Below, piece after piece: positions 35,586-50,126 of a DNA stretch of 64,000 nucleotides. The stretch is from Neodothiora populina. Its lineage: Eukaryota. The stretch covers positions 124,001 to 188,000 of the forward strand of contig NW_027191407.1 of the NCBI RefSeq assembly GCF_041146345.1. The letters are read 5' to 3'. Numbering within the stretch: the first letter of the stretch is position 1; every line of letters starts with the position of its first letter. A program made the position numbers and the translations under genes. A model generated the notes under the pieces. It was not told the DNA's origin, searched no databases, and saw nothing but the letters and a program-made list of their open reading frames with translations.

Positions 35586-36616
35586 TTCTCTCTCAGAAGA
35601 AAAGAGATTGTCGCAGAGGCGATTGTTTGAGGATGGATGTCTTGGCTTCACTTTGGCATAAAATGAATGCTTGTCTGAATTAAGAAGTCGCGAGTTGTAA
35701 ATTGCGGGTAATTGGTGACGGACCTCGGAGGTTAAACCCATTGACTATTCTGCACCCCACATACTGTATCCGTAATTAGGTCGGACCCTCTTGTTGCACA
35801 TTGACTTTTTGGGCGTAGCTGCGGCCGAGGGGGGACCCTGTTCACAAACACACAGCTAAAGCCACAAATTCAGCGCTTGCTGCAAGAGATGTCTTCGATA
35901 CCGTTCGACTTGACTATGCTATGATTTTGTCATGCGCAGCATACTCCGTTATCATCTCTCTATCGATTTGCAGCACTTACTTCTCAGGCGATACGTTGTT
36001 AGCCACATGCTCCTCAGAAACCTTGCAACCGCGGAAACGTCGTCAGGGGTGAGGGAACAGGCACAATATTCCATACGAAGTAGGTACTCGTAAGTCCGCT
36101 GAGTTGCTCTTTGCTAGATTCGATAACGTGCGCATTTAGAGGAATCATTACTATGTGGCGAGTATACCATCCAGCGTCCAAGATCCCAAAGCATCAGTAT
36201 AATCATTCCCATTAGTCAATTGCAATACCCGACGCTGGAGTGGTGCTGACAGATATGTACGAGTACGCCGGTGGTTTCTGCAGCAAGCTTGTTGCAATTC
36301 ATTGCAATAAGCTGCTGATATTGCCATTCAATGCAAATGGCGTTTAGGGACACCCATCGATGTGTTTGCAATTGACTTTCAAGAGGAAAGCTAGGCTTAT
36401 TGCGCGAAGAGTAGTAGTATATAACCTCCATTCCATATCATCGATGGTACTGGTATTCTATTCAGATTCCCAACATTGCAAAGCATTCAATCAAACAAAT
36501 ACTTGCAGAACATTCCCACTTTACCCATTGAATCGAAGTTTCACAAGAAAACCCCAATTCACTTACTCACTTATCACTTGACACGGAAAATTCCCAAAGA
36601 CTCGACAAACTTCACC

Positions 36617-37574
36617 ATGTCTCAAGACCTTACCGCTGGCCTTGACGAGTTGCATGGGGTGCAGGCGATCATCGCAAAGTACCAGGTTGACCTCGCTGCT
36701 CCGACGTACAACCTCCTATTGAGACAACGTGGGGAGAAGAGGGTTCAGGAGTGTGAGCTGCAAGTAATCCAGATCATTGCACGACTCGAAGGGGAATTCG
36801 GGAAATCTATCAGGGAATTGGAGACCATCCCGATTGAGTATGACTCTGAGTCTGAGTCGGTGTATGATTCTGAGGATAGTGCTGATGGGAATGTCGATGG
36901 GGATGTCGATGGGGGTGTCGATTTGGGAAATGGCAACCAGGAAGAGGAAGACACCGGGATCTGGGGCGATGACGACTCGACTTTGGCTCTCCATGAGAAT
37001 TGCATGGAAGATGTACTTTTTGGTGAGGGCAACGATGCCGAGGGATTTCAGACCTGGAGTGTCGAGGATTTGGCCTCGGATCTCCGCGAGAGTTGCATGG
37101 AGGAAGCCGCCTCTGTAGCTGGCTGTACCTCCACTGCGCCATCGAGAGATACATGTACAGAGCGTAGAAACATCGAGGCAGTGAGCGACCGCAACACATC
37201 TCCCTCCAAGAGAGTAGACTCAGGATTGGCGTCAGCTACCAGCAGTTGCGGGTCACCGCCAGCTCCCAGGACATTGATGCCGCCGCTGCCTGCATTGCCG
37301 GCTTGGACTCAGACTAACCCTCAGCCGGCCCACAAGTTGCATTTGCCGGGTAGGATTCCACAGACGCAGGTATCACAGGCTCCTGGCCAGAGAAGCCCCA
37401 CGATAGCCCACAAATTGATTCTGCCGGGTAGGCTTCCACCAGAACACTCTCAGGTTCTGCCGATGACCGGCTCTTCAACCCCTCCGCCACCACACCCCTC
37501 TGCGTCTACTGCGCAGCCAAGGACTTCGCCTCCAACCCTGCCTGAGCCGGTCATACCTTCTCTTTCTCCTTCCT

Positions 37575-37605
<31 letters not shown>

Positions 37606-38428
37606 CATTTCCTGGCCGGCAGCAACTACACCCGCGACCGGCACACGTCCAGGTCCGCCGACAAGTCCCAAGCGCAAACGCGGCGAGAAAGGGCTCAGCG
37701 CCGCACAAATTGCTAGGCTACCGGAGAGGAGGAAAATGCGCCAGAGAGCAGTGAACCGAATGCTGGCCAGCCAATCGCATGCATCTCGCGCCACACCAAC
37801 CCGAGTTCACGACCACAGAGCCAACTTCCTCCAGACGGGCGCTACTCGAACAGTTGTATGTGCAGATCGCAGCAGACACATTCTCACAATCCGCCAGCTC
37901 GGGACTTCCAGGTGTTTCGCAGAGGCGTTCAGGAATGGGTGCCTCGTCACTGGTTCTCAGGGTATGGTGTTGTTCGACCTTGAAGATCCAGAGGATGAGA
38001 TCTGTCTCGGGGTTGATGTTGACCCTGTTTTGTTCGGGCTGTGGGCAATGTTCCTCCGCTCAGATTCATATGTTGTCGAGGCAGCATCTGCGCCTGCAAC
38101 AGGGCAACATCAGGCGCAGGCAAGAATCGATGCCTTCAACACTCACATTCGTCTCTTCGCTTTCGCGGAACTTTTCGAATGCAGTGAATTTCAAGGCGCC
38201 ATATGGCACAATGTCGAGGCTCTGTATAGGCAATACGTCAGCAGGCGGGAGGCGTCTGCTGCACAAGAGCCCGGAGATCTGCAAAAGGCGGAACAGTGGA
38301 ATATCGTGGGCGGGTACTACCGTGTTCGGGATTTGGTACCCATCAAGTATAAGACTTACAACTGGGCTATGGAAGCTGGTGCTGCGAAGACGACTGATGA
38401 GATGCATCGCCATTACAGGAAAACCTGA
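36617..38428 (+). CDS. Hypothetical protein: acidic and Pro/Ser-rich regions, NLS-like PKRKR, divergent C-terminal BTB/POZ-like domain
   Basis: 603-codon intronless ORF with ATG in context TTCACCATGT. The C-terminal VVCAD..SRCFAEAF..DVDPVLFGLWAMFLRSDSY..HIRLFAFAELFEC resembles the fungal BTB pattern. Confidence 0.6.
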
Positions 38429-39321
38429 TCAGTACATAGAAATGCCAAATGGACTGTTGCGGGTATCGCTGTTTCACTGTGCATGTACCGATGTGTTGTG
38501 AGATGTTTGAAAGGACGCCTTATCTCATCTGCGTAGAATTCTATATCCACATCATTTCTACTTCTGGCGTATATGCCTATGACCACTCGGACCATCTAGC
38601 TCCAGCCTCTCTCAGCAGAGGACGTCTTAGTGCATACTTCCATCGTGATTGCAGGTTCGTGCAGCTGATGACTCCATCAAAGAAGCTAATGCTCTTGCTT
38701 GCCGCTTCCCAAAGAAGGATATCCTTGGCTTGTGGTATCATAAGATTTCGAATACTAATAAACATGTACATGACACTGCATATACCGAGATCAGAAGCGA
38801 AGCTGTGTTCAAGCCAACCCATCAAGCTTCGCTCCTGCCTCCACATCGCTATTAGCATAGCCAAATGAAACTCTTCCTTACCGATCATGGATGGCACAGT
38901 ATACTGGTCAATGGAATACCCCTAAACATCTGAGCATGGACTTTACCGCTAGTTTGGCCTTCCTCAGTCCAGCCTCGGTGCTCAAACGACGACGCCGAAT
39001 TGTAAAGCCAATTGCAGGAATTCTGGACTCGAAAGCGTATCGTGTGCAACACACTTTTTGAGAACAACATATGCAATTAGCTGCGCACATGCAATTAGCT
39101 GCGAGAATTAGTATAGTATAAGTATGTTGGGAAGTAAGTGTGTAGTAGTCTTCTACCAACTCCATCCACATCATTCTGTTCCATCAAGCATTCAGCATTT
39201 AATTATACCAAATACACATTGCACAAGTCAACTTCAATCTACCAAGTCATACCAAACTCCAATTTCTCAATTCGTACTTTTATCCTCTTCTACAAGGACC
39301 CTTCCTTCTCCCATCAGCATC

Positions 39322-40158
39322 ATGGAAGGATTCGACAATACCCTCGCCAACGTTATGGTCAGCATCGAAGTTCCCAAGGACTGGACTCTCTTCCTGAAGA
39401 GCAAGGACAACAACTTCACCAGAACAAATCTGAGCGCGGCATGCCAGAAGTCCGCCATCATACGCAAGGGCTATCAGGACCCAGACCGCGCGGCCATCAT
39501 GAGTCAAAATCAAGGCATGCTCATCAGAATGGATTTTGGAAACACTGCCCTCAAGGCCGTTGCACGCTTCATCGATACCGGAAAATACAGAGTGCAAACC
39601 GCAGCTGAGGTCAAGGTCGAACACTACAACGCCGCGTTCATTGGCATGGGCCATCATATGACGGTACACACCGCTGCCAAATTCCTGGAGATGCCTGAGC
39701 TTATCGATCTCGCGGCTGATGGCTTTCATGCTTGCTGGGAAGCTGCACCGAAGCATGCCGGTCTACCGAAAAAGAAGGACAAGCGCACCATGAAGGACAG
39801 AGTGCACTACCTGGCAGCCGCGAAGGGTAGGGTTCGCGAGAAGCGGGAGGCGGTGGCGGCACGTCGCGCAGGGAGGAAAGCAGGCATACAAAGCAGTCAA
39901 GGAAAGGAAATGTCATCTTCGCCAGCTTCAGGAGTTGAGATCAAGCAGGAGCCATTGGAATTGCCGAGCTCTGAGATTCTCAGCAAGATCAAGCAGGAGC
40001 CATTGGAATCGACGAGCTCTGAGATCCTCAGCAAGATCAGCCCATCAACCTCTGCTAGTTCTGGGAGACCAGAGCTCTCCATCATGATACCGGTGACAGA
40101 TGCTCAGGTGTTTCGAATCATCAAGGAAGAACCTCGCACATCGCTACTTCTGTACTGA
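39322..40158 (+). CDS. Hypothetical protein with a divergent N-terminal BTB/POZ-like domain, basic region and tandem IKQE repeat
   Basis: 278-codon ORF downstream of a TATA-like GTATAAGTA. KDWTLFL..ACQKSAII..ALKAVARFIDTGKY..HMTVHTAAKFLEMPELIDLAADGF resembles the BTB pattern. Confidence 0.6.
   Translation: MEGFDNTLANVMVSIEVPKDWTLFLKSKDNNFTRTNLSAACQKSAIIRKGYQDPDRAAIMSQNQGMLIRMDFGNTALKAVARFIDTGKYRVQTAAEVKVEHYNAAFIGMGHHMTVHTAAKFLEMPELIDLAADGFHACWEAAPKHAGLPKKKDKRTMKDRVHYLAAAKGRVREKREAVAARRAGRKAGIQSSQGKEMSSSPASGVEIKQEPLELPSSEILSKIKQEPLESTSSEILSKISPSTSASSGRPELSIMIPVTDAQVFRIIKEEPRTSLLLY
39940..40039 (+). repeat. 48-bp coding tandem duplication (IKQEPLELPSSEILSK / IKQEPLESTSSEILSK)
   Basis: Two near-identical 48-nt units at 39940-39987 and 39988-40035, plus the start of a third. 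Confidence 0.9.
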
Positions 40159-41360: not shown

Positions 41361-42554
41361 CTAAGCCATCATAGGCTTTCCAATCTCGCTCTCCCAGTTC
41401 TGCGCGCGCTCGAATCCGTTCGAAAACGTCTGGTAGTCCAAGAGAGCCTTGTAGACTTCCTCGGTCGATGTGCAGACGAAAGGACCGTACTGAACGATCT
41501 TCTGATCTAACGGAAGTCCAGCGAGAAGGACGAGCCTGGAAGCATTCTCTGCGTTTTCAGGGACGCGAGCAATGATCTGGTCGCCGCTCTGTTCGAACAC
41601 AGCGATGTGGTAACGTGGGAGGTTCTCCTCATCTGCGCCCTCGCCGTAGATGACGTTGCCTTCGAAATTGTAGCCGAAGGCATTCCATCCCGATGGCAGA
41701 CGTTGGACGATCTTGCCGCCAGGCTGGATTGTGATGTCGAGAAGCCAGATTGGGGTGTATGCGAGCTCTTGAAGACTGTCGACGCCTTCACTTTGTCCGC
41801 TGATCACCTTGATGGTGACCTTGCCGTCTGCGGTCTTGGCAGTGGGGATCTCCTTCGCGCGCACGTCACGGTAGCGAGGCTCGCAGTTCTTGAGACTCTT
41901 TGGAAGGTCGACCCAGAGCTGCATACCAACGTTCGGGCTTCCGTCAGGGTTCGCGCGGGGCATTTCCGAGTGCATGATACCCCTGCCTGCGGTCATAAAT
42001 TGCAGATCTCCATCGTAAAGCGTTCCCTTGTTGCCGGCAAAATCTTCGTGATCAGTGGTACCGTGCATGAGGTAAGTGACGGTTTCCTGGCCGCGATGGG
42101 GATGATCAGGGAAGCCAGCGCCAGGCGATACGGAGAAATGGTCGAGCATCAAAAACTATACAAGAAAGTCAGTATTTTGATCCCAGATGTAAACACAAAA
42201 GGCTAGACTTACCGGTGTAAAGTTCTTGAGCTGGCGAGTACCAATGGATCTACGCACACGAGCACCGGCTCCTTCGGGTGTGTCGACTGCCTCGAAGAAT
42301 TGTTGGATTCCTCTCGTCTTCGGGTCCTTTGCATTGAGAGAAGGATCCTCTGGAGGGATCACAGGAAGACCGGCGAATGTCGATTGAGGTGCGGAAGACA
42401 TTGTTGCGTTGGTTCGGGCTTGTTGTATGTTTGTGGTGTTCGTAGATGTGATTGACAATTTAGGACTAATGTATGGGATGTATGATCGAATTGCTTGTCG
42501 TTGTGCGTATAATATTGCTGCTATGCAAATTAAAATGGAGATTAAGAGTCTCAT
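41361..42554 (-). CDS. Pirin-family bicupin with an N-terminal hydrophobic signal/anchor extension
   Basis: EGAGARVRRSIG, FLMLDHF, GFPDHPHRGQETVTY, QFMTAGRGIMHSEMP, QLWVDLP, VQYGPFV; one intron at ~42157-42212. Confidence 0.9.
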
Positions 42555-43477
42555 GGGCTCGAAGACGCACTTTTATATGCAGAAAGAGAAGGCGACGAGA
42601 AGATTCTTATAGCGGAACGAGCAGAAAACATGATACGACTTAAGTTGAATTACTGGCACAGGACGACTACATGTATACAGGAGGGTTTATAGAGACTTAT
42701 GCTGACCAAAGCTGACCATTTATGCGGGGATGAGGGAAAACAGATCGACGAAATGATGGTTAATTATGATCACGACTCTTTTGGGAGACTTAGCAAAGAA
42801 TGAGATTGTCAGCTAAGTCCATGGTCTGGTGCGGCTCTGCGAAGAAATGATGCTCTCCAAGCCTCGGCAATAATCAAGGGACCAGTAGTCGGACACTAAG
42901 GAAGGTACAGTATTACTGTAAAAAGCGTTGGAGGGGCTGTCGATAGGCAGAAGAATATAGGGCAGTTGGGTGGTTAGCAGATGGACTACTTAATCCCCGA
43001 ACATGACTCTGTTGTGTTCCATTTGTTCTCTATTCCTGCATTCTTCACAAACCGTTCTGATGCCTCAGATAGCGATAGTACTATGGTCCCAAGATGTCGA
43101 AACCAGAGTACATGAGTCCGCTGTAGGATCCGATTTGAGACCAGACTCGAGATGTGGTGGCTGTAGAACGCAAGAGCATAGTATTGAACTATACTCAAGT
43201 AAGCAGGTGAAAAGAAAAGAATGGAAGTGGAGTGAAGATGAAGGAAGAAAACAAAAGGAAAGAACAAAAATCAGGGCCACTCTAAGCTGTAGAGCATCAA
43301 CGCCGGAAGAACAAAATACAATAACTTTCAACCCTCCTAAACTCCCTCCACGAACGCCTGAAAACCACTTTTGCATCCCATCAGACGGCCGATAGTACTC
43401 CTCGCTAAAATGATCCGTACAGTTCGATAAAGAAGGTGAGAAGCAACAACAAATGAGATTACAGGAATCCGACAACC

Positions 43478-46400
43478 TCAAAGCAATCTTGCCCGAACAG
43501 TAGTCTCAGGGGTAGCCCTAGCAATACGAGACGCGAGAGTTTCTGATGCAGCCATCGAAGCTGACTGGATAGCAGGCATAGTCGCCGCTCTTTTGAAGTG
43601 TCCAGTGTCCGTATCGGTGGTATGCTTGTCAGGCCAAAAGTCGAACCAGTAGGGCTTCGTGTTGGTCGGCTCCGCGACAGATTCACTGTAGTCGCCATGT
43701 ATTCCCTTGCAATAATCTGTGGCCCAGCGGGTGCACCTTGCTCTGAGACGCTTCTCGCCCTCGGTGGCATTCTTACGGCCGTAATGGAGAAGGACGTCCT
43801 CAAGACCGTCAACGTCATTGTTCTTCACCGAGACGCAGACTTCGCCGCAGCCCCATGTCAGACACTTGCCCGAAGATGCAGCAGTGAGACACTTGCGGCC
43901 GCGCAGGTTCGACAGGCAGGCTGACCAGATGTTGCAGTCGGAATCGTAGGCGTTCTGAACCGAGCAATGGCGCCTGCCGCCTGAGCTGCAGAGGGATTGA
44001 TTCGATGGGAAGAGATCGAGGAGCGGGTCGTGGTTCCAGTCTGCTGTTGCTCCAGACCATTTGCGCATACCGTTTACTATCCCGCTGTCGGGCATTTTGG
44101 ACATGTAGGGCGAGGGAAGCCAAGTGGGGTCGGGGTATATAAGAGATGTCGAGGACGAAGGGGATCGTTTGTCTTTCCGCTTCAGTCCCACCCTTTTTCC
44201 GGATTCCTGGGCGATGCTGTCTACATCGTCGTTGATATCTCTCCTTCTCACTACTACCGCTCCTGCTGTTGGTGGGAATACAGGCAGAGATTCAGGCACA
44301 GTGATGACATTTGGAACGACAACAGGCGTGGAGTATGTACTGTCGCTTTTGGGTATCATGGAGCCACAAGCCATATACCCCCATCTCAAGCATTTGCCAT
44401 GGCGATCTTCCAACTTACACAACTTGCCACAAATTCCTTTAGGGAAGAGCACGCGCGCCTCGTCGCAGGGGTCGACACCGTAGTGTATACATTTGAATTC
44501 GCCATCGACTTTCTCGACCTTGAAGCACGTCCGTCTGCAAACAGGGTGGTTATAGCTTTCACATACCCCGTAGGTGTTCACTGCGAAACAGAAGTTGACG
44601 GGGACGTTGTCGGTACCAGGGGGTCGGGTGAGGTAGGGTGGGTGTGCTGGAGGGTGGCGTTCTTCGAAGTCGTGCTTTCTGGTCGAAACTGGGGGTATTT
44701 CGTGTCCAGTCCCAGTATGTGCTTCACCTGTAGAAGCTGAGTGAAATCCGAGACCAGTTACAGTGGCTGCGGCGGAATTGAGATTGATGAGCGACTGTGT
44801 GAGGAAATCGTAATTAGTTCCTTCGTCGTCGGGAACGTCACTGGGAGCGACATCAGGACCAGAATTTGAAACATTTAAAGTAGCCTCGGCAGGGCTGAGG
44901 CTTATGAGTGACTGCGTAAGGAAATCATATCCAGTCCCTTTGTCGTCAGCAACATCTCTGACAACATGATCGGCATCAGACCCAGAAAGGAACCCAGTTG
45001 AAGTAGCTTCGGCAGGAGTGAGGCTTATGAGCGACTGCGTGAGGGAATCGTAGCCATGCCCATCATCATCGTCGTCAGCATCAGTACTAGAACTAGTTGA
45101 GGTGGCCTCGGCAGGAGTGAGGCTTATAAGCGACTGCGTGAGGAAATCGTATCCATGCTCATAACCATCACCAGAATCAACATCATTGTCGTATTGGTTG
45201 TCAACCTGGATACTACGGGCTTTATTGTGACCAGAATGTCTTTGGCGCCGGATGTACGGCGTAGTTCCCTCACCGTGTGAAATCACGACACGTCTCTGAC
45301 TGGTTGACAGCCAAGTTGTGAGGAATTGAACTCCGGTTTTAGTGCCCACTTTGTGTGTGCGAGTGGCAACGACAGCTATAAGCACGTCGTACTTGAGCTC
45401 TTTACGAGGATAATCAATATCTTCATTGTCTTGGTTTCCAACATTGTTGTAGCTGCGGGCAGTGATTTGGCCAGAAGGCTCGTGGCGACGGACTAATAGC
45501 GTAGATGACGAACCAGTCGAGGCTGTAAGAACATCGAACCCAAGATCGATGCGTCTCCCATTGGCCCAGGTCTTGGCTGGGAGAATATCGAATCCAGCCT
45601 CAAGACTCCTCTTACTAGTAGAGGTTGAAGCCGAGGTCGCGGACAAGTCGGTCACATTCCGCACCTCTTGCGTCGGACTAGCAGTCGATATTGTAAGGGA
45701 GTCGTGTCCGGTCTTGGTCGTGCCACTGATATCAATACCATATTCATGACTATTGTATCCGTCACGAGCATAGCGGTCGGCACGAGCATTGATCTGTTGT
45801 TGGCTCTTGATATGATCAGATCGGCTGACCTCGTCTATTTGGCGCTTTCTGATGGAGCGGTCGAGACTGAGAAGCACGTATATGTTAGCGCTATGAACTT
45901 TATCAAGAGACAGGCACCTAGTGCTTGAGAAAGAGGAGAGTTTTCTTATGGATGGAATGTCATCTCTCCTTCTTGGCCAAGGGAAATGCGATGATAAGCC
46001 CCGAATGAACGTAAGTTGATGGTCTGAGCTATCTAGTAAAGGAATGACACGGTCTATGAAAATATGTGCTTAATGAACGTGAGGGACGACTACGAAGGTC
46101 ACCTTTGGCGATGGGCGATACTATGAGTGTCTCGAAGGAGGCTAAATTGGAGTATAGGGTAAAAAGGGGAATAGGTGGCAACGGAGGAAAGTCAGACTCA
46201 TGGAGACTTGTGACCTGTAACTTACTCCGCTTGAGACAGGTTGCGCATCTCCGTCGAATTCGCCGGTGGCGGTGGAGGGGTCCCGACATCAATCGAGTCT
46301 TTAGAGACCCTCGCGCATTTGCAGTCCACGACATAGCCAGCAGCATTCTGGGTGCAAAGCCAGTGCTTATGCTTGGGGCAAGGCTTTACTTGGCTTGCCG

Positions 46401-48429
46401 CGAGCCCACTAGCATTTCCGTATGGGATCCTGTAAGCATCATGGAATTGCCCAACTTTTGATCTAATCATGATGGAGGGGTGTAAACACTGACAGCCCTT
46501 GCCTGCGGCATCGCACATGGGCACCTGGCCATCAGGACAATTGTCGACCTCTTGCTCGCATACGCAGTGTTTAGCACCCGCCTTGCCATCGCAAAGCTTG
46601 CTTGACGTGTTCGGGCAGACACCATCGGGTGCAACAGGAGTAGTGGCACCCTTGCCGGGCTTCGGCTGTGACACTAGATGTTTGCCAACACATTTGCACG
46701 TGTTGGCGTATCCGTTGCAGAGCTTACGTTCGTCAGATGAACAACCAGTATCTACAGGGAAGAGGCATTGACAAATCTTAGCATCAGTCCGGCCATCACA
46801 GATCTTGGTTGCCTCTTTCGGGCAAGCTTTGCCTGGAGCAGTCTCATCCGTAGTGTAGTCACGAGGGACGACGCGCTCGGCAGTATCCCGATGCAGGAGT
46901 TCTGGCTTGCCGGTGGGAAGATAGTCACTGCCAGTCTCGGTTGTCCAGATGGTGGAGGCATGCTTGACCTTGTTGCTCTCAAGACTTTGAACAATGACGG
47001 CGGCAGGGGGGCTAGGGGTCGCGGAGACAATGACCTCAACGACACTGGTCATTCTGGTAAAGACGAAGGAAGACTTGGTGGACTGTTCTAGGCGACTGAG
47101 CGCCAACCTAGAAGCCTTTGCTCGATCGCACATGTTACGCTCCTTGATCTCTCTGCGGCCAAGCTGCTTGACAGCGGAGGCAGCTGCAGACTGGGCGGCC
47201 TGAGACTTCTTGGCACATTTGTTGTCTCCTTGCTTGCAGCCACTGATATTGACATCAACATCGACATCGACATTGATGCCGCAGTGGGGACACTTGGAAT
47301 CATCGGTGCATGAGTCGCAGTCAGATTTGGGGGGAGATAGTGGCGGAGTGTTGGTTGTCACAGTTGTGCCAGGCGCGGTGATCGTTGTGCTCGAGATTAC
47401 GGTGGTCCCAGGACCACGGATGGTGGTGCCTCTGAAGCAGGTGAATGCGGAGACGACAGTTGAGCCAGGGCCAGTGACGGTAACGCCAGGAGCAGTCACG
47501 GTGCTCTGAGGAGGATAGACAGTGGTACCAGAGACGACTGTAGATCCAGGCCCTGACACCGTTTGCGTGATTGGAGGGATAGTGACAGTATAGTTCTTAG
47601 TGATTCCAGAAACGACGGTGCAGTAAACAGTGATTCCTGGAGCGGTCTTCATGGTATTGAGGGTAATCGTAGACGCGGGAGCAGTGACTGATTGGATGAT
47701 AGTAGTACCGGACACAATAGTTGTGCCTGGCAGGGTCTGGGTGGACCCGGGTGCAGTAACATTGTAGGTACGGTACATAGTCGTCCCAGAGACGACAGTA
47801 GCAGTCTTGGTAGATCCAGGCGCGGTCCAGGTGGTACCCGGAGCGGTGACGTTGTGTTGTACCGTGGGGCCAGGGACAGTCGAGACGCGTGAGATTGTGG
47901 CGCCAGGCAGCATACGCGTGAGGGACAGGGTGGTGCCGGATACTACGGTGCAAATGACGGTCTTTCCGGGTAATGATGTTGTCTTCGTTGTGCCGGGAGC
48001 AGTGACAGTGGTACCAGAGACGATTGTGGAGCTCGGAGCGGTAACGGTGGAAGCTTGACACGAGGAGCAGCTAGACTCCGAAGAGGAGGTCGAGCAGCTA
48101 GTCAAGGAAGAAGGTGACGAGGTCGAGGTAGATGAGCTTGAACAGCTGGTGGAAGACGAAGACGACGAAAACAAGGTAGAGGAGCTCGAAGAGACCGAGG
48201 AAGCGGAAGACAGAGTGGTGCAAGCGCTAGAGTTGCATGGAGGCGGGCTGGCGATGCTGCTGGAGCTGCAGCTGGCCGACGTGAAGGTGCTGCAACCACC
48301 AGCGGCATGACAAGAGGTGATGATGGAGGTCTTAGTCGACTTGGCAGTAGCCGTAACAACGGGGGCCGGGGCAGCCAGCACCGTGATGGTGTAGGCGCTC
48401 AAGGCCAGAAGGGGGAGCGTGAAGCGCAT
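43478..48429 (-). CDS. Large (~1530 aa) secreted, Thr/Ser-rich, Cys-rich modular repeat protein; exons 48429-46226 and 45866-43478
   Basis: Signal peptide MRFTLPLLALSAYTITVLA-AP. The stop of the upstream ORF lies inside a GTAAGT donor (46225). Branch point GCTAAC and CAG acceptor (45867) precede the downstream ORF, and the phases match (GA|T = Asp). Confidence 0.75.
44760..45160 (-). repeat. Four coding repeats of G(Y)DFLTQSLISL(T/S)PAEAT
   Basis: DNA-similar units anchored at 45130, 45031, 44908 and 44791 (periods 99, 123, 117 nt, all multiples of 3). Confidence 0.9.
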
Positions 48430-48682
48430 GTTAAGTCGAAGTTGGATCCGACGTCTGCTTCTCGAGCTGAGCAATCTTGGGCTTGTTGCGTGAGTGTCAG
48501 GTGTAGGAGAAAGTTGGAAAGCAGAGGGGCAGCGGAGTATTTATATATTCGGGTTCCGCTTCGATACTGCTACAATTATTCCACAGTGCAGCCATCGCGA
48601 TTGCAAATGAGATCCCACCAATGACAATATCATGCAAGATGATCAACGTCAAAAGCTGAGGGTAAGAGTTTGCGCATTTGCA

Positions 48683-50126
48683 TTACGCTTTTCCCAATGA
48701 CCAACCATCGTCTCCATTATTACGGGTCCATCCTCGCAGTGGACCTTGTCTGACCAGCCTTTTGATAGATTCTCGCGCTTGCAAAGCGTAGTGGGTCTTC
48801 ACCCCATTGTACGTAGGCTGATTCAGAGCTTGTTGAATGGCCTTCTCCCCGATCATCATAGCAAGACCTGCAGCCATTAACCACGTTTTTCTTCTCGACA
48901 CGGCAGAAGCCCCCCTTGGATCAAGCTGCTTTCTCCCTTGCAGAACTCCATTGATAAGGGTCTCCTGATTCGATCCATATGTCAGTGAAGAGATATTGGA
49001 GGGGACAATAGAGACAGTATCTGCCCACGCTGTAGAGCGTCGACTGAAGCTAAACTCGCGAGCGGTGGGGTTGACCTTGAAAGGTCTATAGGAATAGAGT
49101 GTGAGTGCATAGTCACGATCCCCAGTACGCTCTAGTGGAGCCATCCGACCTTCCGGGCCAAAGGCTCGCTGACAAGCCGTGTCAATGTATTGGCTAGCGG
49201 GCATGGTCAGCGTAGATAGATAAGCTCTGTCTGGATGTACGAATAGAGATGTGAGACTCGAAAGTGTTGAGGTAGTCTGCTTCAGTGCCAGTTTGTCGGA
49301 GCATGACTTGGACAAAGTTGGTGGTGCATCTGGTCGGGAAGGTTTGCGACGGACAACGCCCAGGACGTCAAAATAGGAGCGACCGTAGAGCTGGGATGAA
49401 GCTTGGTCATCCCGGGATGGACTGCCACTTTTCGACCCTATGCAGCCAGGGTGATCTTCTGAATCAGCAGGTTGTGGGGGAGGGGTACGTGACCAGGGCG
49501 TAGCATCTTGCTGAGCAGCCATGGTCAATTCCATGCTCGCATCTCCACAGGGCGCCTCGGAGCAGTACATGTGTAGTGTGACATTGTCTCTGATTCGGAA
49601 TGGCTGTCCCTGCCATGATCGCCCGTTCTGTGGCAGGTCGTCATCGGAGGCAATCTCGGCAGGCTTGTTCCTCCACTCGAGGATGTTGGCCGCGGCACCA
49701 TCTACACTATTGTCATGATCATTCCCTGGCATAGCGAGACGACTACATTCATCGAGTAAGAAGCGGTTGAAGGCTCTCAAAGCTAGTATCTCAGCATGAC
49801 TGTCATGCAAGACATTGCCCTGCAGCACATGTAATTTGTCCTGAGGCAGACATTTCATACCAGTAGCTAGGGCGACACATCTCAGCCTATTGCCTGGTTG
49901 TTCATAATGTCTAGAAATTGTGATTAGTATGAGGTCATCGGGGAAAAGAACCATTCGTGGATCATTACCCACTATCAACTACGATACCGGCAAGAGGAAC
50001 CCATTCTCGCCGGCCAGGCTTCAGAGCAGAAGACGTATCACGAGGCTTGCGATGGGAAGGAAGTGCATCGAATGCACTTATAACGCAATCCGCGATCGCA
50101 TTTGCTTCTTCAAGGTCTTTCGTCAT
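48683..50126 (-). CDS. TAD1: tRNA-specific adenosine-37 deaminase Tad1/ADAT1 (2 exons)
   Basis: REWVPLAGIVV, CVALATGMKCLP, LHDSHAEILALRAFNRFL, YCSEAPCGDAS, RRKPSRPD, SKSCSDKL. Confidence 0.9.

Follow-up and report, generated by a model that had tools for sequence, protein, structure and literature searches.

A probable two-exon gene of Neodothiora populina predicted to encode a secreted, modular precursor with Kex2-type sites

Kex2 cuts secretory precursors after Lys-Arg (KR) or Arg-Arg (RR), and after some other sites ending in Arg (xR), late in the secretory pathway (PMC4617103), with a preference for an aliphatic residue at P4 (PMC8528282). In Ustilago maydis, Rep1 peptides freed by Kex2 form surface fibrils, and Hum3 combines a Cys-rich domain with repeats set apart by Kex2 sites (PMC4617103), while Rsp3 (PMC5923269) and the Blastomyces protein Bad-1 (PMC6023273) bind the fungal surface without a glycosylphosphatidylinositol (GPI) anchor. 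Here, we analyze a gene on the minus strand of a 64,000-nt stretch of Neodothiora populina DNA (RefSeq assembly GCF_041146345.1, contig NW_027191407.1, positions 124,001 to 188,000; hereafter, the window), at window positions 43478–48429. Its product appears to be of an already known kind, the Kex2-processed, repeat-containing surface protein, of which this would provisionally be one orphan member.

By analogy, we infer that the gene works like Rsp3, Rep1, and Hum3, its orphan product being a surface or adhesion glycoprotein that lacks a GPI anchor and is processed by Kex2. Rsp3, as described in PMC5923269, is likewise secreted and GPI-less, combines a Cys-rich region with a complex array of differing repeats, has no predicted domains, and is surface-associated; it differs in being 869 aa long, predicted uncut by Kex2 between its repeats, and reported as unglycosylated. 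Our searches found no sequence match between the two proteins, and the Ser/Thr stalk and five 4-Cys modules of the N. populina product do not figure in the description of Rsp3 in that source. Rep1 and Hum3, as described in PMC4617103, also bring a signal peptide, repeats, and Kex2 sites together in one precursor. Rep1 resembles the present protein in yielding short peptides and one long piece, and Hum3 in joining repeats to a Cys-rich (hydrophobin) domain, although the N. populina protein has no Pfam hydrophobin match. Most of their repeats are Kex2-separated (PMC4617103), whereas here only degenerate copies are, and under 15% of the protein consists of repeats.

Structure of the gene

The first-pass annotation had read two long open reading frames (ORFs) as one gene interrupted by a 359-nt intron, and both the splice signals and the arithmetic support that join, with 2204 + 2389 nt giving, in frame, 1530 codons and a stop. 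Judged from these signals and from coding potential, the splice 46225–45867 very probably unites both frames into a single gene of the following structure.

48429–46226, minus strand: exon 1, 2204 nt, codons 1–734 plus two bases; coding log-likelihood +79 in frame
46225–45867, minus strand: spliceosomal intron, 359 nt, phase 2; single copy, unstructured
45866–43478, minus strand: exon 2, 2389 nt; earliest in-frame ATG at 44374

The intron opens with a GTAAGT donor, carries a GCTAAC branch site at 45889, and closes, 14 nt after that site, with the CAG of the acceptor TCTCAG; introns of this genome use GTRNGT donors and RCTRAC branch sites. The ORF sizes first given needed correction. Counted from its ATG, the unspliced exon 1 frame encodes 735 aa instead of 750, and its TAA stop sits within the GTAAGT donor, a position in which none of 251 control ORFs of at least 150 codons ends. 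The second frame, first given as 799 aa, spans 863 codons from stop to stop, 795 of them within exon 2.

To score coding potential, we trained a model on 80 long frames, taken from the remainder of the window and from 20 stretches elsewhere in the genome. In their own frames, exon 1 (+79) and the first half of exon 2, which has no ATG (+42), score as coding; the intron scores as non-coding in all three frames (−43, −34, and −40), as does the portion of the second frame that is open 5′ of the acceptor (−15). Exon 2 contains 497 codons without an in-frame ATG, the first being codon 498 (44374), and each of the three ATGs that occur from 46201 to 45780 is out of frame. Upstream of ATG 44374 lie four conserved repeats. 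Of their 20 variable columns, 13 are third codon positions (binomial p 0.004; pN/pS 0.20), in a test biased by the choice of repeat cores for protein likeness. A 109-nt repeat defined on the DNA itself points in the same direction, more weakly, with 52/222, 74/216, and 93/216 mismatches at positions 1, 2, and 3. The other five frames are closed across this stretch. Variation concentrated at third positions argues that the repeats are translated under protein-level constraint, and thus that an upstream exon is needed. Neither exon contains a further in-frame intron candidate.

Other explanations of the 359-nt gap were discarded. Stops in all three frames and a lower GC content rule out a frameshift or assembly slip. 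Introner-like elements are characterized by many copies and stable secondary structure (PMC3609843); the gap sequence, also considered as a mobile element, is single-copy in the genome and folds no better than its shuffles (z-score +1.07; 83 of 100 fold equally well). Nor is the intron a small nucleolar RNA host by Rfam, which has no match within it, the lone match in 42500–49000 (E 0.34) falling in exon 1.

The predicted precursor and its Kex2-type sites

In the numbering of the 1530-aa model, the protein is built as follows.

48373–48429, minus strand: probable signal peptide, residues 1–19, with a basic start, a hydrophobic core, and an LA/AP cleavage context
48049–48372, minus strand: Ser/Cys-rich segment, residues 20–127, 44% Ser and 8% Cys
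47335–48048, minus strand: Thr/Val/Ile-rich repeats, residues 128–365, 47% Thr, Ile, and Val combined
47152–47334, minus strand: small 6-Cys segment ending at LGRR (residue 426), the sole dibasic site of exon 1
46315–46824, minus strand: five 4-Cys modules, C-x7-C-x6/10-C-x-C, residues 536–705, with no dibasic site in between
45245–45853, minus strand: cluster of Kex2-type sites, IRKR 743, SKR 821, GRR 840, LVRR 862, QRR 927, and YIRR 942
44741–45190, minus strand: four conserved acidic repeats, residues 961–1110, spaced 33–41 aa apart, core xYD[FS]LTQSLI, net charge −26
44351–44605, minus strand: Cys block 1, 10 Cys, with three hairpin-like C-x8/11-C-x2-[WY] units
44165–44350, minus strand: Pro/Val linker and strongly basic processing stretch, VVRRR 1277, GKR 1293, and LKRKDKR 1302
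43589–44164, minus strand: candidate Kex2-bounded Cys/Trp-rich domain, 192 aa, 10 Cys and 8 Trp, with two C-x8/11-C-x2-W units
43478–43588, minus strand: Ala-rich tail of 36 aa after FKR (1494), plus the stop codon; no GPI signal

Dibasic [KR]R sites number 16 in the whole protein, against 7.1 expected (p 0.001). The excess is confined to exon 2 (15 against 5.6; shuffle p 0.00015), exon 1 having one such site for 1.8 expected. The fuller motif [LIV]-x-[KR]-R, counted over both exons, is also overrepresented (6 against 1.2; p 0.0016), in agreement with the aliphatic P4 preference reported for Kex2 (PMC8528282), whereas the control motif [KR]K is not significantly enriched (9 against 7.1). Together with the one proprotein-convertase (kexin-type) P-domain gene found in the genome, these counts make Kex2 processing of the exon-2 half likely. 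A duplicated unit keeps its RR site at the matching place (862 and 942), and Gly precedes 4 of the 16 dibasic sites, where ~1.1 would be expected, an amidation-like pattern.

The hydropathy of the protein fits secretion. Its top 19-residue Kyte–Doolittle window (1.82) starts at residue 7, in the probable signal peptide, and the runner-up (1.48) is a Pro-containing stretch; by this measure, there is no second strongly hydrophobic segment that could span a membrane and no GPI signal, the C-terminal 19-residue maximum being 0.65 in a basic tail. The first-pass annotation, which had seen neither a transmembrane segment nor a GPI tail, is borne out here. Its modular precursor likewise is well supported by sequence as spliced, secreted, and GPI-less, with Kex2 processing likely in the exon-2 half.

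A pattern scan recovered the five 4-Cys modules, the two further blocks of 10 Cys each, and every dibasic motif that had been named. The sites separate fewer modules than had been thought, since no two of the five 4-Cys modules, and no two of the four conserved repeats, have one between them. In the cluster at 45245–45853, they bound Cys-free pieces of 78, 19, 22, 65, and 15 aa, four of which contain a degenerate G-[FYH]-D-x-L motif. The predicted sizes of the Cys-containing products are ~410, 220–320, 335, and 190 aa; the short ones, of 15–25 aa, lack Cys. These positions point to large multi-module blocks accompanied by a few Cys-free peptides, and do not support the earlier idea of a precursor of several small disulfide-rich peptides.

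Repetition within the protein is of several kinds. The Thr/Val/Ile-rich region contains [VI][VI]SG[TI]T six times and T[AG]PG[STVI]T eight times, and 4-Cys modules 1-2 and 3-4 form a tandem duplication (p 0.003). About nine copies of a G-[YFH]-D-x-L-like repeat had been counted, a number reached with looser matching; the strict form matches six times, and four copies are strongly conserved. The next five matches by score against the four cores (788, 844, 913, 826, and 893) are all found where Kex2 sites are dense, and each lies above the 95th shuffle percentile for its rank, so a count of about nine is reasonable. The C-x8/11-C-x2-[WY] unit of both exon-2 Cys blocks occurs five times against 0.54 expected, with a p-value inflated by the pattern having been set after looking, and the 192-aa Cys/Trp domain is weakly similar to Cys block 1 (shuffle p 0.007). 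The protein has 13 N-glycosylation sequons in all, and its Cys count, 59, is odd. The linker after residue 426 has a single Cys, Cys434, which stands alone between that predicted cut and the first module; it also has possible single-Arg sites at IKER 431, LLHR 514, and VVPR 523. Within the 6-Cys segment, a short GACATC tandem repeat (47251–47273) codes for the alternating strand VDVDVDV, which has Cys residues on either side.

Candidate roles of the product

The reading we favor, about equally likely in our judgment to prove right or wrong, takes the product for a secreted glycoprotein that gives rise, on cleavage, to about four large pieces and several small ones, and that serves to build a surface coat or an adhesive matrix. 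The precursor would enter the endoplasmic reticulum, where its Ser/Thr stalk would be O- and N-glycosylated and its disulfides formed; Kex2 would then cut KR/RR sites in the linkers in the late Golgi. The large products would be a mucin-like stalk of ~410 aa, a block of 220–320 aa holding all five 4-Cys modules, a piece of ~335 aa with the acidic repeats and Cys hairpins, and the Cys/Trp domain of ~190 aa, released along with several Cys-free peptides of 15–80 aa. These pieces might bind the wall or each other again through disulfides and short aggregation-prone strands, the Cys blocks serving as binding modules. We counted 12 candidate beta-aggregation hot spots, eight of them in exon 2, on an AGGRESCAN-type scale run without a control.

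The signal peptide, high Ser/Thr content, repeats, Cys-rich regions, sequons, and dibasic motifs are all on the list of common adhesin features in PMC6023273, and an adhesin-like surface role has precedents in the GPI-less binders Bad-1 and Rsp3 and in the fibril-forming Kex2-cut peptides of Rep1. Compared with the adhesins described in that source, including the GPI-less Bad-1 and Schizosaccharomyces pombe Map4, the present protein lacks a GPI signal and any recognized lectin, Ig-like, or chitin-binding domain, and its dibasic sites are far more numerous and cluster in one half of the protein. Our literature search found no work joining adhesins, dibasic motifs, and Kex2. The gene is a test case for a question that PMC6023273 leaves open, namely what role the dibasic sites of adhesins play, and whether shed pieces build matrix.

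Several observations weigh against this account, at the level of the gene, the sites, and the function. By coding score alone, the proposed donor does not stand out from the 912 frame-compatible GT/GC-AG pairs, since a weaker donor, GTGCGA at 46516, scores slightly higher (21.8 vs. 21.0); among the pairs listed, though, only 46225–45867 joins a GTAAGT donor to both a branch site and a YAG acceptor. The intron is also long for this genome, where candidate donor–acceptor distances peak at 40–80 nt (25 of 105) with a flat tail beyond, and the intron of the neighboring pirin gene measures 57 nt. Three of 26 control long frames reach a dibasic observed/expected ratio of at least 2.2, one of them on two sites only, and three of the 16 sites (1180, 1367, and 1441) lie inside Cys blocks and may stay uncut; even if these were cut, disulfides would be expected to hold the parts together. 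The adhesin features are generic, none being universal according to PMC6023273, and no homologue, family, or confident fold backs any function.

A cargo polyprotein is a possible but rather unlikely alternative. Following the logic of Ece1p, the stalk, acidic repeats, and short peptides would be spacers or chaperones, and the freed five-module block, Cys block 1, and 192-aa Cys/Trp domain would act as diffusible effectors or antimicrobials. The Cys/Trp piece has an even Cys count and is neatly bounded by the strongest basic clusters (LKRKDKR and FKR), and the Cys blocks are mildly cationic (pI 8.4–9.4) next to an acidic repeat of net charge −26. The GxC-x3/9-C motif, an antimicrobial-peptide signature, occurs three times in block 1 against 0.73 expected (p 0.024); however, it is not enriched in the five modules (p 0.73) or in block 2 (p 0.63), and one in three tests at this level is weak. 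Effectors often lose a pro-domain through Kex2 (PMC8528282), and Candida albicans Ece1p, as described in PMC12153327, similarly places unlike segments between KR sites of one secretory precursor. That protein is 271 aa long with eight short peptides, whereas most of the present precursor is predicted to form large glycosylated or disulfide-rich blocks, with no sign of a cytolytic peptide. Moreover, the Cys modules are not individually bounded by Kex2 sites, Pfam and PDB sequence searches matched no effector, toxin, or antifungal family, and a 410-aa glycosylated stalk would be an expensive spacer.

It is improbable that the gene encodes a spliced but largely uncut mucin-like glycoprotein, in which most dibasic sites are incidental or serve only as shedding points. 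Exon 1 does lack a dibasic excess, the conserved repeats lack dibasic sites, such motifs occur without known role in 15 of 24 adhesins catalogued in PMC6023273, and Rsp3, which also has Cys-rich and repeat regions, is a repeat protein predicted not to be processed by Kex2 (PMC5923269). Against this stand the strong enrichment in exon 2 with its aliphatic P4 preference, and VVRRR and LKRKDKR, which, in predicted linkers, would be hard for Kex2 to miss.

A bolder proposal, which we also hold to be doubtful at best, is that a mucin/Cys-module gene and a KEP-like gene (KEP, Kex2-processed repeat protein) have fused, the spacer between them becoming the long intron, so that retention or splicing switches between a short and a long product. 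Retention would yield the 735-aa surface protein alone; splicing would add, as a second payload under one signal peptide, the short peptides, the acidic repeats, and two novel kinds of disulfide hairpin block. The old stop would survive inside the donor, and a Kex2 site eight residues past the junction would separate the halves again. The position of that site, the stop of the 735-aa frame within the donor, and the location of nearly all dibasic sites downstream fit this proposal, although this placement of the stop also follows simply from the sequence of a GTAAGT donor in phase 2, for which reason we give the proposal low weight. If true, it would describe a splice-switched two-gene secretory polyprotein with two undescribed Cys-module types.

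It is very improbable that there are two units, exon 1 being a complete 735-aa gene and the downstream frame a separate, truncated, or decaying one, translated at most from ATG 44374. In favor of this view, exon 1 is stop-terminated and seemingly self-contained, a possible short 84-nt intron (46225–46142; TCTGAC branch ~50 nt from its AG) would give 748 aa, the 359-nt intron is of atypical length, and the searches returned no deposited 1530-aa product, though that of a neighboring gene is in the collection. The 497 open, coding-like, constrained codons before the first in-frame ATG, the non-coding score 5′ of the acceptor, the out-of-frame ATGs, and the perfect, phase-compatible donor, branch, and acceptor at the coding boundaries all speak against it.

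Related classes, searches for homologues, and genomic setting

KEPs, as surveyed (PMC6339444 and PMC7329392), resemble the predicted precursor in having a signal peptide, many KR/RR sites, and apparently a motif common to several predicted fragments. The rule of Le Marquer 2019 asks for a signal peptide without a transmembrane segment, at least four fragments after KR/RR cuts, at least three mutually similar fragments, and repeated motifs over at least 15% of the protein (PMC6339444). Here, hydropathy and inspection give such a signal peptide, and cutting leaves 14 fragments after the merging of clustered sites. Pairwise shuffles gave p 0.003 for fragments 822–840 and 841–862, p 0.003 for 863–927 and 943–1000, and 0.01–0.05 for other pairs, all uncorrected over 66 pairs. 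Repeat coverage, however, is between 6% (19 aa in five fragments) and 11% (19 aa in nine copies), and the assignment was rejected. Umemura 2020 asks for at least three tandem repeats of 8–100 aa, each between Kex2 sites (PMC7329392); the four repeats and the five modules each lie within one fragment bounded by [KR]R, the pattern used in our check, whereas the scoring in that source also counts KK and RK. By demanding compact repeats between Kex2 sites, KEP surveys filter out large mosaic precursors.

Other precursor classes were tried and rejected. A dikaritin (ustiloxin-type) precursor of a RiPP (a peptide synthesized on the ribosome and modified post-translationally) is not supported by the genome, where contigs C4 and C13 account for all eight UstYa matches and C18, the contig of the window, has none. 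An alpha-type pheromone precursor does not fit, as STE13-type XA/XP follows only two of the 16 sites, neither before a repeat. Msb2-type signaling mucins have a transmembrane segment and a cytoplasmic tail, and no second strongly hydrophobic segment is present here; Pir cell-wall proteins carry the internal repeat DGQ[IV]Q, which has no match. The low C-terminal hydropathy and basic tail likewise argue against a GPI-anchored adhesin or flocculin. The UstYa/DUF3328 matches themselves (C4:4076-7199, C4:1148854-1155819, C4:770892-771173, and C13:1246964-1247500) include two sets of three, one close to either end of C4, which are candidate dikaritin-type RiPP clusters.

The first-pass annotation had not recognized a family, and none emerged from any search we ran. 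Relatives were sought in the gene's own genome, the only eukaryotic genome included, and in protein, structure, and metagenome collections. Word-index searches gave no match for exon 2 among proteins of 1393–3975 aa, for residues 120–734 of exon 1 among proteins of 1286–3670 aa, or for residues 365–734 among proteins of 403–1285 aa, with the 4-Cys modules not searched in shorter proteins. An exhaustive phmmer search, with exon 2 and not exon 1 as query, returned zero matches among 1.84 billion representatives. The five 4-Cys modules and the exon-2 Cys blocks had no match in the ESM Atlas, pattern scans of metagenomes confirmed 0 of 109 and 0 of 36 candidates, and the best PDB sequence hits had E 0.33 and 0.8. 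Pfam searches of the two exons and ten sub-regions gave nothing over the curated cut-off; DUF7575 (E 0.0025; 17.6 bits vs. a cut-off of 28.5), on a CxxC..CxxC stretch, was rejected as below it. AlphaFold2 gave no usable model from single sequences (mean pLDDT 45.1 and 36.2), and Foldseek found nothing at E < 0.6 with the first, its top rows, often EGF-repeat proteins, being no evidence on such a model. The own-genome search returned just the gene itself, which is single-copy. Provisionally, the sequence points to an orphan, lineage-restricted gene, which adds two Cys-module types without detected relatives. In the protein collection, the 735-aa form is absent and the gene's own product was returned by no search, whereas the product of the neighboring methyltransferase gene is present, so the product seems to be missing from the deposited set or modeled differently there.

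The genome comprises 24 Mb in 18 contigs and is marked as fungal by its intron signals and its eight UstYa matches. The gene, on the minus strand, is flanked by an adenosine-deaminase gene (PF02137) upstream and a pirin gene. Just 253 nt (48430–48682) separate the deaminase stop from the ATG, so the upstream 3′ untranslated region and the promoter must nearly overlap.

48539–48547, minus strand: TATA-like box TATATAAAT, ~110 nt upstream of the ATG

Beyond the pirin gene, two long plus-strand ORFs (36425–38428 and 39112–40158) have no Pfam match over the cut-off; with the spliced gene, they make three unassigned genes among conserved ones. The pirin gene itself (41361–42553, minus strand) has a 57-nt intron at 42212–42156 and two candidate starts, an in-frame upstream ATG at 42553, which adds a hydrophobic, signal-anchor-like N-terminus and has a TATA-like box ~25 nt upstream, and a second ATG near 42401.

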